A DNA stretch of 64,000 nucleotides from Candidatus Hydrogenedentota bacterium. Lineage in GTDB: Bacteria; Hydrogenedentota; Hydrogenedentia; Hydrogenedentales; SLHB01. The notes beneath the pieces were generated by a model. It worked only from the letters and a program-made list of their open reading frames with translations, was not told the origin of the DNA and made no database searches. This document shows, one piece after another, positions 3,127 to 22,230 of this stretch. Numbering within the stretch: the stretch's first letter is position 1; the number at the start of each line of letters is the position of its first letter. Position numbers and translations under genes: made by a program. The DNA lies in contig CAXXTH010000017.1 of NCBI GenBank assembly GCA_963668025.2, positions 704,001-768,000 of the forward strand, written 5' to 3'.

Positions 3127-4460
3127 GGACGTTCACCCACTTCTTTGGCCCGGTGCGCAAGCGCTTTGCGGGCTTGCCCGATCCCCGCAAACCCGAGCAA
3201 GCCGGCGACGTGGACTACAGTGTCGCGTCGCTGGTGTTCTTGGGAGTGCTGATGTTCGCATGCCGGCTCGGGGCGCGCCGGCAAGTCCGCCTGCAGTTGT
3301 ACACGACGTTCATGGTCCATCTGTACAAGGTCTTGTTTGACGTGGACAGCGTGCCGCATGGCGATACGATGAACGGGGTATTTCGCGGTTTGCCGTTCGA
3401 GGCGGTCCAGGAACTCGTTTCCGGCATGACGCAGACGCTCATCGACAAGAAGGTGTTGTACCCCCACCGCCTGTTCGGGCGCTACTACGTGGCGGCCATC
3501 GACGCCACGGGGACACGCAGTTATGATCATCGCCACTGCGCCCATTGCCTCACGCGCAAGCACAAGAGCGGCAAGATCACCTACTACCATCCCGTGCTGG
3601 AGTCCAAGATCGTCACGCCAAACGGGTGGGTCTTTTCGCTCATGACGGAGTTCATTGAGAATCTAGAGGAAGACCTGGCGAAAAGCGAGCAACAACGCAA
3701 GCAGGATTGCGAGACCAAAGCCTTCTACCGGCTGGCCCCACGCCTGCATGCCCGATTCCCCCGCTTGCCGCTGCTGTTGGCGATGGACGGCCTGTACGCC
3801 ACGGGACCGGTGTTTCGGCTGTGCCAGCAATATGGCTGGAAGTTCATGATTACGCTCACGGACGGCCAATTGGCCACCGTGAACGAAGAATTCGAGAGCC
3901 TCGCGGCCGCGACGCCCGAAAACCAGCTTACGTGGCGTTGCGGCAACAAGAAGGAAATCCACCAGCAGTTTCGCTGGGTCAACGACATCCCCTACCGCGA
4001 TTCCGAGCGGCGTGAACACATCCTGTCCGTGCTCGAATGCGTGGACACCCGCCCGGACGCGGAAGGCATGATAAAGAAAACCAAGTTCAAATGGGTGACC
4101 AACGTATCCGTATCCGCGCACAATGCGGCCGCCTTGGCCAATGAAGGAGGACGCTTACGCTGGAAGATTGAAAATGAAGCATTCAACGTGCAGAAAAACG
4201 GCGGCTACAACCTCGAACACGCCTATACCCAAAACGAACAGGCCAGTAAGATCTACTACCTCTTGATGCAGATAGCCCATCTGCTCATGCAACTCCTGGA
4301 GGATGGCAGCCTTCTGGCCGCCCACTTTCCAAAAGGATTCGGCTCCGCCAGAAACCTTGCCCATCGCCTCCTCGAAGCCCTGCGCAACGCCACCCTGTCC
4401 CGCGAACAATATGACGCCCTCTGCACCGAGGCCATCCAGATCCGCTTCAGTTCCGCGTAG
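3024..4460 (+). CDS. DDE transposase (ISAs1/IS4-superfamily-like)
   Basis: AIDAT, MDGLY and RWKIENEAFNVQK motifs. Confidence 0.9.
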   Translation: MEKAQEARRGHGRGPTAVPANPQEEHPEIIRAFLRTFTHFFGPVRKRFAGLPDPRKPEQAGDVDYSVASLVFLGVLMFACRLGARRQVRLQLYTTFMVHLYKVLFDVDSVPHGDTMNGVFRGLPFEAVQELVSGMTQTLIDKKVLYPHRLFGRYYVAAIDATGTRSYDHRHCAHCLTRKHKSGKITYYHPVLESKIVTPNGWVFSLMTEFIENLEEDLAKSEQQRKQDCETKAFYRLAPRLHARFPRLPLLLAMDGLYATGPVFRLCQQYGWKFMITLTDGQLATVNEEFESLAAATPENQLTWRCGNKKEIHQQFRWVNDIPYRDSERREHILSVLECVDTRPDAEGMIKKTKFKWVTNVSVSAHNAAALANEGGRLRWKIENEAFNVQKNGGYNLEHAYTQNEQASKIYYLLMQIAHLLMQLLEDGSLLAAHFPKGFGSARNLAHRLLEALRNATLSREQYDALCTEAIQIRFSSA

Positions 4461-4675
4461 AGAGCCCGCGAGTTCCCGGTTGCGCCGCCCACCCTGCACG
4501 TCACGCCCCCCGTTCACCGGCTTCTACGCATAGCCCACGCTACTCCTATTGCCCGTCGGCCTCGCCACCCCCCGTCTAACCCGCATCACCTCAACGCCTG
4601 ACCCTGGGGCGCCGCTATTCTTCACCGCTGTGCGCTAAGGCATTGTTATGTTTGTCCTCTATATGATTAAATACT

Positions 4676-15192: not shown

Positions 15193-16617
15193 TTAGATAT
15201 CGTAATACAGCATGAACTCATACGGATGGGGCCGGATCGCAACTTGCTCGACTTCTTCTTTGGTCTTGTACTCGATCCAGGTGTCCAGCACGTCTTTCGT
15301 GAACACATCGCCTTTGAGCAGGTAATCGTGGTCGTTTTCCAGATTCTTCAAGGCTTCCGCAAGGCTGCCCGGAGTTTGTTCGATGGTGGCTTTGATCTCG
15401 GGGGGCAAATCGTAGAGATTCTTGTCCATGGGCTCGCCGGGATCAATTTTGTTCTGGATGCCATCAAGGCCCGCCATCAACATGGCCGAGAAGGCGAGAT
15501 ACGGATTGCAGCTCGGATCCGGCACGCGGAATTCAACACGCTTGGCTTTCGGGCTGGGTGAATACATCGGGATGCGGCAGCACGCGCTGCGGTTGCGGCT
15601 GGAATACGCCAAGTTCACCGGGGCTTCATAACCCGGCACGAGGCGCTTGTAGGAGTTGGTCGTGGGGTTCGTGAAGGCCACGAGGGACTTGGCGTGTTTG
15701 AGCAAGCCGCCGATGTACCAAATGGCTTCCTGGCTCAGACCGGCGTATTTGTCGCCCGCGAAGAGCGGCTTGCCGCTCTTCCACAAGCTCTGGTGGCAAT
15801 GCATGCCGGAACCGTTATCCTGGAAGAGGGGCTTGGGCATGAAGGTGACGGTCTTGCCAGCGGCCTTGGCGGTGTTTTTGATGATATATTTGTACAGGGT
15901 GAGCTGGTCGGCCATCTTGGTCATGGGCGAAAAGCGCAGGTCGATCTCCGCCTGGCCTGCCGTGGCCACTTCATGGTGGTGGCACTCGACATCCAGCCCG
16001 CACTCGAGCATGGTGGCGACCATCTTGCTGCGGAGATTCTGTTGCGAATCCGCAGGAGGAACGGGGAAATAGCCTTCCTTGAAGCGAAGCTTGTAACCCA
16101 GGTTGGGCATTTCGTCGCGGCCGCTGTTCCAGATGCCTTCCACGCTGTCTACTTCGTAGTAGCCGCTATAGGGAGTCTGGTCATACCGCACGTCATCAAA
16201 GATGAAGAATTCCGCTTCCGGCCCGAAATAACACAGGTCGGCGATCCCGGTCGAGATCAGGTAATTTTCCGCTTTTTGCGAGATATTCCGAGGGCAGCGC
16301 GAATAACGCTCCTTGGTGATGGGGTCGAGAATGTTCGAATACAGAATCATGGTGGGGATGTCCGTGAACGGATCGAGCGTAGCCGTTGTCGGGTCGGGCA
16401 TGACTAGCATGTCGCTTTCATTGATGGCCTGCCAGCCACGCATGCTGGAGCCGTCAAAGCCCAGTCCGTCTTCGAACATGTCTTCCGACAATTCCGATAC
16501 GGGCACCGTGAAGTGCTGCATCAAGCCGGGGAAGTCCATGAACCGGAAGTCCACGAACTGAACCGCATGTTCTTTAGCGAATTGAACGACGTCTTTTGGG
16601 GTGAAATCCTTGTGCAT
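15193..16617 (-). CDS. glnA: Type I glutamine synthetase
   Basis: [29 protein letters not shown]; adenylylation-site motif NLYDLP. Confidence 0.98.
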
Positions 16618-16759
16618 TGCAACCTCCGTGCCTCACGCAGTCTTCGTGTCGTATATGTGCCGCGGAAACAACCCGCACTGGCGGGCCGCCCGCATGCTCC
16701 CAACCGGCTGTGGCGCATCACATTGCGCCGCGAAACCACCGGCATGCTGTAACTTGGCC

Positions 16760-17223
<464 letters not shown>

Positions 17224-19176: not shown

Positions 19177-19638
19177 GCCCCGTGCGTTGAATGAAATTCA
19201 ACGGTTCATTCCTGAACGAGGGGATTTCCAAAAATGGAGCAAGTAAGCCAAAACAAGAAAATCCCAGTGAAATACGCCGAAGAGAACAAGAAAGCGGCAG
19301 CAATGGCGTGAAAAGAATGACTTTTGGGATGCCCATACAGGGCATTTCGGGGGAGCATTTGTACCCAGGGGCTCCCTTGCCCTTCGGGCGGCGGTCGGCC
19401 CTGGGCTGTGCTGGGATGTCCCTTCGGGACACGCTTACATTACCGGCATGATTCAACATATATACCCGCATGATTTGGCATACACGAAAATGAAATGAAC
19501 CAGTAGTAGGGGCAAGAAACCAACAGAAAATACTGCATTGACAGTTTTCCAGAGGAGAAGTAGAATTAAGCAGTATTCTTATTTTATCCGAATGGGGTGG
19601 CTTGTCGATTTCTTGAACTGGAGCAAGGAGGACGGGGC

Positions 19639-22230
19639 ATGTACAGGCTGCTTGCGTCTGGATGGTTGATATTGGCGGTTTCGTTCGGCGCGTACGCGGT
19701 GACGGGGAGCGGTGATTCGGGCACAAGTCCGCTGGAGACCGTGCCGCCGATGTTGCAATCCGTTTCGGCGGTGACGGAGCGGAGCTTATCCGTGACGTTC
19801 AGTGAGGCGATGGGAACGCCAAGCATCACCACGCCGGGGAATTACGCGGTATTCGGTGACGGCTCAGGCAGTCTTTCACCGAATCCGGACAGCATCTCCG
19901 GCAACGGTCCGTATGTGTTGACTTGGTCCGCAGGCGAAATGCGCCATGGAGAGACCGTCACCCTTGTCGCGGACGTGCAGGACGCGGTGGGCAATCCCAT
20001 CGATCCCTTCAATAGCAGCGCCTCGACTTCCGGAATCGGCGTGGCTCCGGTCTTTGATAACTTGGTGGTAAATCCAGCCCAAGCTTCCATCGGCGGTGTT
20101 GTCGACATTTCATTCTCCTCCTCCGAAGCGCTAAACGGTAATCCGAACGTTACCGTGAACGGCCATGCGGCGACGCTCGCCAACACCGGTAAATCTGTTA
20201 ATTTCACCTATGAGTACACGGTCCAGGAAGAGGACGCACCCGGCGCAGCCAGTATTCTTATCAGCGGAATTGACGAGGCGGGCAACTCCGGTTCTCTGGA
20301 AAACACCACTCTTCTCGATATTGTGGAAGGAGAACTAGAGCTACCCTTACGCTGGTTTCCATCCGCCCTTGTGCTGGCGTTAGCAATCATCGCCGCACTA
20401 GCATTCCGCCGGCGCAAAGGGGTGGGCCTGCTGGTTCTGCTCGTTCTTGCCGCGCCTATGGCGCTGGGCCAAGCGCCGACGGTCTCCAACGTGGAATTCG
20501 TGCAGCAGGACAATGGCGAAGGGGGTACGGAAGTCGTTATCACCTATGATCTCGACGCGCCAAATGCTCCTTGTGATATCACCGTTGCCCTGTCGAAAGA
20601 CGGCGGCGCGGACGGCTTCATTTATCCAGTAACGAGCGTTACGGGCGGCCTTGCCGGTGTGGCCACTGGCGCGGGCCACACCATTACTTGGGATATCGCC
20701 AGCGATTACTCCAACGAGGAAATTCCGAATGCGCGGATTCGCGTGACAGCGGATGACGGACTCGAGCTCTACACTCTTGTCTATACCGCAAGCGCCGGAG
20801 GAAGCATCCGGGGCGATTCGCCGCAATATGTGGCGGAGGGGAACGACGGCGCGGAAGTGACCGCCGAGGCGGATGCAAACTACCACTTCGTAAGCTGGTC
20901 GGACGGCATATTGACGGCGACGCGGCAGGATTTGGACGTGGACGCGGATATCAACGTAACGGCCAACTTCGTATCCGATTTTCTGACGGAAATCACATCG
21001 TTTGCAATCAACACCGGCTCGGTAACGACAATGGCGCTGGGGGTGACGCTCGACAACACGGCGACGAACAGCCCAACCGAGTACATGGCGAGCGAATCTT
21101 CCGACTTCAGCGATGCGTCGTGGACCGCTTACAATACCGCGCCGTCATTCGCACTTTCTTTCGGCGTCGGAACGCGCACCGTGTACTTCAAGGTGCGCAA
21201 TGCGAGCAGCGAATCGGGGGTAATAAGCGACACTATCTTTATTGTACCAGACACGATCTCGATATCAGCGGGAACGTTCGAGATGGGGCGGACCTTGCTG
21301 GGCGACGATGCGAACGGCTACAGCGATGAATTACCGGTGCATTCGGTCGAGTTGTCCGCATACCAGATCGGCAGATATGAAGTGACGAGCAAGGAGTATT
21401 GCGACGTATTGGGCTGGGCGCTCGCGCGGGGCTACCTGATGGACAGCGAGGGCGGGGAATGGCTGAATTCTGGGGACAGCATTTATGCGGGCGGCCCTTC
21501 GGCGCGATATCGAATCGTCGTGAATGATTCAACGGATTGTAATATCCAGTATGCGGGAGAAGGCGTGTTCACGCCCAGGAAGAGGGTGGGTTTGCCGGGC
21601 ACGACCAAATACTTGATGTCCACACATCCGATGGACATGGAATCGTGGTATGGTGCGGTGGCGTTCTGTAACTGGCTCAGCGAGATGCAAGGCTTGACAC
21701 CCTGTTACGACATGACGGCTGAAAACTGGCCGTTGATAGTAGCGCCGCCCACATCGGGCGGATATCGATTACCCACCGAAGCGGAATGGGAACGGGCAGC
21801 CGCTTGGGACGGCGAGAAACACTGGATTTATGGCTTCACGAGCGATTTGATCTCCTCAAATTGCTGCAACTACAAAGGTTCGACTTGGACGAATCCGTTG
21901 GGCCTGACCACGACACCCTACACCTCGCCGCGCGCCTGGTTTGACGGCGTGAACGTCAGCCCGAACGGGAACGTGACGACAGTGAACAGCGCCAGCCCGG
22001 TGGGCGCTTACGATATGAGTGGGAACGTATGGGAATGGTGTCATGACTGGTACTCGTCGACGTATTACCGTGGCGGCTCGATGACGAATCCAACAGGACC
22101 AGATTCCGGTGAGCAACGCGTAATACGGGGCGGCGGTTGGTACGACGGCAGTTGCCGTTCCGCGCACCGCGGCATCACCAGCCCATCGAGCACGTTCAAC
22201 AGCATTGGCTTCCGCATCGCCAAGTCTTAA
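19639..22230 (+). CDS. Secreted modular protein: Ig-like domains, internal TM/signal segment, InlB-B-repeat-like domain, C-terminal FGE-sulfatase (CLec) domain
   Basis: AGGAGG RBS, AYA signal peptide, GTFEMG, YRLPTEAEWERAA, DMSGNVWEWC, RVIRGGGW, GFR. Confidence 0.9.
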   Translation: MYRLLASGWLILAVSFGAYAVTGSGDSGTSPLETVPPMLQSVSAVTERSLSVTFSEAMGTPSITTPGNYAVFGDGSGSLSPNPDSISGNGPYVLTWSAGEMRHGETVTLVADVQDAVGNPIDPFNSSASTSGIGVAPVFDNLVVNPAQASIGGVVDISFSSSEALNGNPNVTVNGHAATLANTGKSVNFTYEYTVQEEDAPGAASILISGIDEAGNSGSLENTTLLDIVEGELELPLRWFPSALVLALAIIAALAFRRRKGVGLLVLLVLAAPMALGQAPTVSNVEFVQQDNGEGGTEVVITYDLDAPNAPCDITVALSKDGGADGFIYPVTSVTGGLAGVATGAGHTITWDIASDYSNEEIPNARIRVTADDGLELYTLVYTASAGGSIRGDSPQYVAEGNDGAEVTAEADANYHFVSWSDGILTATRQDLDVDADINVTANFVSDFLTEITSFAINTGSVTTMALGVTLDNTATNSPTEYMASESSDFSDASWTAYNTAPSFALSFGVGTRTVYFKVRNASSESGVISDTIFIVPDTISISAGTFEMGRTLLGDDANGYSDELPVHSVELSAYQIGRYEVTSKEYCDVLGWALARGYLMDSEGGEWLNSGDSIYAGGPSARYRIVVNDSTDCNIQYAGEGVFTPRKRVGLPGTTKYLMSTHPMDMESWYGAVAFCNWLSEMQGLTPCYDMTAENWPLIVAPPTSGGYRLPTEAEWERAAAWDGEKHWIYGFTSDLISSNCCNYKGSTWTNPLGLTTTPYTSPRAWFDGVNVSPNGNVTTVNSASPVGAYDMSGNVWEWCHDWYSSTYYRGGSMTNPTGPDSGEQRVIRGGGWYDGSCRSAHRGITSPSSTFNSIGFRIAKS

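Follow-up and report, generated by a model that had tools for sequence, protein, structure and literature searches.

An internal sorting tag and second signal peptide conserved in a Hydrogenedentota precursor protein, with a predicted donor strand linking its two halves

In chaperone-usher pili an Ig-like domain that lacks strand G is completed by the N-terminal extension of another chain, and Bradyrhizobium FbcH is a bacterial precursor that is cut at an internal signal. Sorting signals in the middle of a protein have also been described. HVO_0405 of Haloferax volcanii, a substrate of archaeosortase A, is a fusion with a central tripartite signal and was shown to be cut there (PMC7157517), and in Myxococcus xanthus a cut has been proposed at the internal MYXO-CTERM of the fusion MXAN_5598 (PMC11980579). 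The excerpted text of these papers describes the former as a fusion specific to a strain and the latter as atypical, and mentions no second signal peptide or re-assembly. NCBIfam additionally holds a family called midcut-by-XrtH (NF033207). In Porphyromonas gingivalis the gingipain polyproteins are cut into fragments that stay non-covalently associated on the surface via ABM1 and ABM2 motifs (PMC10319874); according to the excerpted text they leave the cell by the type IX route, carry their signal at the C-terminus and, unlike the protein considered here, have no internal membrane hairpin. The original prediction had offered the present arrangement as possibly undescribed, which for mid-protein sorting signals as such is not the case. 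In contrast with HVO_0405 and MXAN_5598, however, the layout reported here is conserved across six families, and the combination of internal tag, second signal and donor-strand tether was not found in the literature searched, which was largely that of freely accessible main texts.

The window, by which we mean the whole stretch of 64,000 nucleotides that was analysed, contains an ORF of 863 open codons, and positions 20341-20478 encode L235 to P280, as had been described. In the ORF list of the window the genes on either side are on the opposite strand, and none flanking the ORF encodes a chaperone or an usher. A glutamine synthetase and a PII (GlnB-like) gene were recognised by eye upstream, on the minus strand (15193-17212). 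The features of the precursor are as follows.

19626..19631, plus strand: Shine-Dalgarno-like AGGAGG, with the ATG 7 bases downstream (from the sequence)
19639..22230, plus strand: precursor ORF (P0001), 863 codons open, 863 aa
19639..19698, plus strand: signal peptide 1, residues 1-20, ending A-Y-A; cleavage predicted (sequence and homologues)
19699..19746, plus strand: donor beta-strand, residues 21-36, predicted to be the acceptor's missing G strand (models and variants)
19747..20043, plus strand: Ig-like stalk domain 1 (model)
20044..20334, plus strand: Ig-like stalk domain 2 (model); in relatives followed by the tag and a stop codon
20341..20418, plus strand: internal sorting tag L235-K260 (Pro motif, hydrophobic helix, RRRK), IPTL-CTERM-like
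20407..20469, plus strand: second signal peptide R257-G277, sharing its basic cluster with the tag; predicted signal-peptidase site G277|Q278
20470..20766, plus strand: acceptor beta-sandwich, residues 278-376, strands A to F only
20770..20976, plus strand: InlB B-repeat (Pfam Flg_new_2), residues 378-446 (Pfam)
20986..21243, plus strand: beta-rich spacer domain, residues about 450-535 (sequence)
21244..22224, plus strand: FGE-sulfatase (C-type-lectin-fold) tip, residues 536-862 (Pfam), without the two-cysteine catalytic motif

In homologues A-x-A precedes the same mature start as that of signal peptide 1. Ig-like domain 1 is optional: it is missing from 26 of 83 hairpin proteins, in which domain 2 is the sole stalk domain. 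The spacer matched no family in Pfam and NCBIfam profile searches. Below, helix 1 is the helix of the tag, helix 2 that of the second signal, and the hairpin the two together with their basic loop.

Criteria for tripartite C-terminal sorting signals are given in the excerpted text of a preprint (bioRxiv 10.1101/2023.06.07.544157). The hairpin has the motif, the hydrophobic helix, the basic cluster and many copies in the genome, but it is not C-terminal: 603 residues follow the tag. In the loci of five relatives (L042-L046) Ig-like domain 2 is followed by the tag and then a stop codon. The expectation that such anchors normally end a protein is borne out in this genome, where at least 72 ORFs end in a Pro motif, helix and basic cluster (153 candidates yielded 64 by manual selection, and a profile added 8) and only two credible internal tags were found. 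The C-terminal tags fall into a P-[VA]-x-x-x-x-G sub-type and a P-[LM]-x-W-like sub-type, and there are also five tags of VPEP type. In a search with a profile of 20 W-type C-terminal tags the hairpin ranked second among the non-seed matches (15.5 bits, E 0.025); a broad profile of the 64 tags missed both internal copies, and the window's copy was found only by the W-type sub-profile. A first iterative tag profile did not generalise and was dropped. Judged by its sequence, helix 1 is a real sorting tag.

The tag resembles the midcut-by-XrtH and IPTL-CTERM/exosortase H systems (NF033207, TIGR04174, TIGR04177) in its mid-protein position and in the presence of an XrtH-like exosortase and an XrtH-associated-like gene in the genome. 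Against NF033207, which was compared by profile score and name rather than by its full description, the whole protein scores 13.7 bits and the hairpin region 16.6 (cut-off 45); only 3 of 16 homologues match at all, and none of the 13 matches in the genome is above the cut-off. TIGR04174 (cut-off 20.5 bits) has seven matches in the genome; the hairpin is not among them, and the one that passes is a C-terminal tag. The motif of the window's protein is P-[LV]-x-x-W-P, unlike IPTLxxWG, which we take to be the IPTL-CTERM consensus.

Only two exosortase-family genes were found in the genome. The best family of the first (C18:149901-151406) is XrtH, with 72.4 bits against a cut-off of 86, and the gene adjoining it scores 22.1 bits against a cut-off of 35 for XrtH_assoc. 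The pair lies directly after five tagged genes. In this array (L018:6378-11644 and upstream; G000:C18:149377-162034) the exosortase has a long insertion, the five tagged genes are of beta-helix type and a transposase-like gene lies within. The second exosortase is XrtA-like and is found amid polysaccharide genes on C10. A counterpart of the XrtH-like exosortase is present in 14 of 15 genomes with a hairpin gene, but this says little, since 48 of 61 genomes of the order have a strong match to it.

A profile search with the domain after helix 2, here called the acceptor, found proteins with up to 30 tandem copies among the best 150 of 3848 matches. In these proteins strand F is followed by NxGxxxxSxxFxLDT and then by the next repeat. 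We made a G-strand profile from 203 strands of 36 tandem-repeat proteins (training 5th percentile 9.0). No G strand follows strand F in any of the 83 hairpin proteins (median -16.5, best 2.1), so that the acceptor is a beta-sandwich lacking strand G. Their N-terminal regions, however, have a median of 0.2 on the same profile compared with -11.9 for 64 tagged controls, and a donor motif stands at the mature start of 67 of the 71 hairpin proteins with a first signal compared with 2 of the 64 controls. The donor strand of the window's protein scores -7.0, which is inside the control range (95th percentile -5.5, maximum 0.6); its identity therefore rests on the family, on the form in cis described below and on the models. 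Taken together, the profiles indicate that the acceptor of the hairpin proteins is without its last strand and that the matching strand begins the mature N-terminus.

The acceptor has no credible match in Pfam or NCBIfam and no sequence relative in the PDB (one match, E 0.55), and Foldseek gave only generic Ig/FN3 multi-domain matches, with TM-scores of 0.29 or less among the matches listed. NF058595 (invert_tail) was rejected as its family; it is weak in 8 of 16 sequences, matches all 14 control genomes and passes nowhere here.

In an AlphaFold2 model of residues 21-376 (42 rows) the mean pLDDT is 87.5, with the hairpin below 50. The first 10 mature residues are predicted as strands, with pLDDT 93, when the acceptor is present; in the N-half modelled alone the Ig domains are retained but these residues have pLDDT 67 and form no strand. 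The original prediction had asked for a model of the two-part complex, and the two chains (21-232 and 279-376) gave a score of 0.90 against 0.00 for the best of three controls. The complex-score mark is reached by 116 of 157 solved pairs and 2 of 215 mismatched pairs, counts that are only rough with the alignment used. The runs agree in 100% of contacts, with a partner pLDDT of at least 94. Residues 21-36 are placed antiparallel to strand F and beside strand A, which is the G position, and the closest pairs include D26-R368, G25-V369, S27-I367 and L32-I362. Pairs made by splitting one domain, as here, tend to score well in such models, although no sequence relative of the acceptor was found in the PDB. 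The model supports binding of the strand rather than showing it, and it is in the models and the natural variants that the G slot is filled by the N-terminal extension of the other chain. In the complex strand A begins next to where the donor strand begins, at the end distant from Ig-like domain 1. Because the N-terminus of the acceptor is at the end far from the stalk, a cut at G277 would allow a straight rod, whereas an uncut chain would have to arch back.

We consider it likely that the precursor is cut into an anchored stalk and a tip that re-attaches via donor-strand complementation. Sec would export the N-half, helix 1 would stop transfer with RRRK left inside, and helix 2 would restart export. 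Signal peptidase would then cut after A20 and G277, as the conserved A-x-A suggests. Residues 21-36 are predicted, from the models and the natural variants, to fill the empty G-strand slot of the acceptor, giving a rod in the order membrane, Ig-like domain 2, Ig-like domain 1, completed acceptor, B-repeat, spacer and FGE-fold tip. The last step is the weakest: the tag is probably a substrate of the XrtH-like exosortase, which would cut it and anchor the stalk anew; otherwise the hairpin would hold the stalk. The original prediction was of an anchored subunit and a released subunit from one ORF. An anchored N-half and an exported C-half are supported by the conservation of the fusion, the split forms and the conserved A-x-A, from which cleavage is predicted, but the C-half is predicted to be re-captured by the N-terminal donor strand and not released.

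Helix 2 has what Sec and signal peptidase I require of a signal peptide: a basic n-region, an h-region and small residues at -3 and -1. With the internal cut site picked from four candidate positions, 76 of the 83 hairpins could be parsed and 7 could not; in the 76, Ala is found at -3 in 72 and at -1 in 70. From the last basic residue to the cut site the median is 18 residues, the length of a signal peptide. We take helix 2 to be a real signal peptide, putatively cleaved. These data also bear on the possibility that there is no internal cut, and that a permanent membrane hairpin keeps both halves as one chain outside the inner membrane, with the strand completing the domain in cis. A permanent helix needs no Ala at either position, and in the model the uncut chain would arch back over three domains, with N-halves that range from about 20 to 900 residues among the hairpin proteins. 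In favour of a permanent hairpin, the basic loop of one strain is weaker (HQRK), and one protein (P0130) has an N-half made up of the donor strand and the tag, with the strand a few residues before the tag, from where it could reach the acceptor uncut. We regard a permanent hairpin as unlikely.

Natural variants of the arrangement are informative about the donor strand. L057/P0098 is the unpermuted form, in which a signal is followed by the acceptor, the same strand directly after F and then Ig-like domain 1; in L068 an insert separates F from the strand. Among ten loci with a stand-alone acceptor, the next long gene on the same strand starts with one to three donor-like strands in five (L050, L053, L065, L066 and L067). 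No donor gene was seen at the other five, four of which reach the contig edge; the fifth has one long ORF with only a weak internal candidate. In one protein (P0151) the order is donor, acceptor, FGE, strand, acceptor, FGE, strand, with FGE apparently inserted between strands F and G. The spare N-terminal donor of this protein could capture another chain.

It could be argued that the precursor is cut and the halves part, the fusion securing only synthesis at 1:1, with the tip secreted free and the N-terminal strand a relic. Stand-alone acceptors without a profile-positive G strand in cis are indeed common (30 of 31) and the window's strand diverges from the repeat consensus; since so few have the strand in cis, and half of the ten loci show no donor gene, the acceptor might be stable without G. 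A relic, however, would not be expected to be kept where something else takes the place of the stalk domains (P0043, P0135) or where there are none (P0130), nor to be missing from the start of all five Ig2-tag genes that have no acceptor in the retrieved locus. Together with the large difference in score between the complex model and its controls, this makes free secretion of the tip quite improbable, and re-capture of the tip by the donor strand remains the preferred reading.

The fusion itself is not due to chance; it is a real, conserved feature. Among 40 homologues of residues 130-375 the hairpin is in a single frame in 37, two of the others being garbled at the hairpin and one a stand-alone C-half. 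The named homologues are from Candidatus Hydrogenedentes or Hydrogenedens. A profile of tag, signal and acceptor has matches in 45 of 135 genomes of the phylum, and 49 matches, of which 48 are stop-free, span all three parts in 29 of the 135 genomes from six families, although related genomes in these counts are not independent. Acceptor identity among fused forms goes down to 29%; the fusion is old as well as conserved. Contigs from two sequencing runs in two studies cross the hairpin without indels. One (X3) has no differences and comes from the same study as runs containing the whole gene; the other (X4) has 12 substitutions, two of which change RRRK to the HQRK noted above. No RNA run was listed among those containing the gene, which says nothing for or against its expression. 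A second hairpin gene, with a different N-half, is present in the same genome (L019:3765-5240; G000:C9, P0043). It encodes a signal, donor strand, acidic DxDxDG repeats, tag, signal, acceptor and FGE domain.

The data largely refute the explanation that the ORF is two ordinary genes run together by a misassembly or by the recent loss of a stop codon, or that separate products arise from an internal start, and we give it hardly any weight. Two-gene forms do exist (L050, L053), and one copy is broken near the tag: in L062:6128-7938 (G036:C316) a stop and a change of frame interrupt it between Ig-like domain 1 and the tag, and it is either a broken gene or an assembly error. Homologues are mostly fused, though, where the stop-loss account had them always as two genes; the acceptor gene precedes its partner in the two-gene loci that were inspected, whereas in the fusion it is the acceptor that follows; and a start codon with a ribosome-binding site lies within the hairpin in only 1 of 16 sequences, for which reason an internal translation start was rejected. 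A receptor-like topology, with helix 1 as the only membrane span and the C-half in the cytoplasm, is just as improbable, as we found no point in its support, the hairpin has two hydrophobic segments flanking a basic loop, and the acceptor and C-half occur behind an ordinary N-terminal signal peptide in 31 proteins.

When the tip is aligned with bacterial FGE enzymes it has one Cys and a deletion where the enzymes have LCHDSYC or LCHESYC, whose two cysteines we take to be catalytic. Its best PDB sequence match is TvpA of Treponema denticola (PDB 2y3c, E 6e-19), a target of a diversity-generating retroelement (DGR). For these two reasons the tip probably binds a ligand; it is most likely a ligand-binding module and not an enzyme, and the pipeline annotation of such genes as FGE-type enzymes is probably wrong. 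The original prediction had suggested that the same hairpin be sought before different passengers. The FGE core motif is found in 49 of 83 C-halves and none of the 83 ends in a tag (some records are partial), which suggests a variable cargo that lacks an anchor. Three hairpin proteins (P0037, P0038 and P0039) have non-FGE cargo, and the source record of one gives it as a prepilin-type H-X9-DG protein, so that the tether would carry unrelated cargo.

The precursor resembles TvpA-type DGR targets of the FGE subtype in the best PDB match of its tip and because the acceptor gene of one relative (L065) is itself a DGR target. This gene has a template repeat of 120 bases, 109 of which are identical, with the differences mostly at template adenines. 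In L065:1613-7140 (G059:C24) a small accessory-like ORF, a reverse transcriptase and the template repeat (4409-4528) lie between the target, which encodes signal, acceptor and FGE domain, and a donor gene that starts with three donor-like strands. TvpA is anchored as a lipoprotein, and in this respect it differs from the window's protein, as it does in the absence of a template repeat for the window's gene: a DGR link was rejected when no repeat for the 3' end was found in the genome, which is 93.75% complete. The reverse-transcriptase matches in the genome have 24-29% identity and are mostly multi-copy. These multi-copy genes are found at 18 places on nine contigs and are probably group II introns.

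The precursor would function like a midcut sorting substrate with a donor-strand tether of the pilus kind attached; by the tests run it is a member of neither family. As in chaperone-usher pili there is a G-less domain, a donor extension and, by prediction, an adhesin-like tip on a base. Unlike in pili, donor and acceptor come from one precursor and are on different predicted products, giving a 1:1 pair and not a fibre; the base is a protein with a sorting tag, and subunits do not each carry donor and acceptor and polymerise. We put forward tentatively, as an idea that falls somewhat short of probable, that Hydrogenedentota have an undescribed plug-and-socket display in which lectin-like tips that can be interchanged, and some of which are diversified by DGRs, are captured via the G-less domain by tagged scaffolds bearing between one and three donor strands at the N-terminus. 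The window's gene would be the self-contained polyprotein form, and tips could be swapped between scaffolds, including that of the hairpin gene on C9.

If our reading of the precursor is true, the donor strand (16 residues) and the acceptor domain (99 residues) would be a natural peptide-domain pair, a possible protein tag, and the protein would offer a size-shift reporter for XrtH-type exosortases, as HVO_0405 was for archaeosortase. It would be a conserved secretory polyprotein, forming a surface structure in which two C-termini, an anchor and a binding tip, are re-joined by a split domain. Such a design would permit one protein to have an anchor as well as a binding domain at a C-terminus, and it suggests how anchor-less FGE and C-type-lectin proteins, including DGR targets, may stay on cells.
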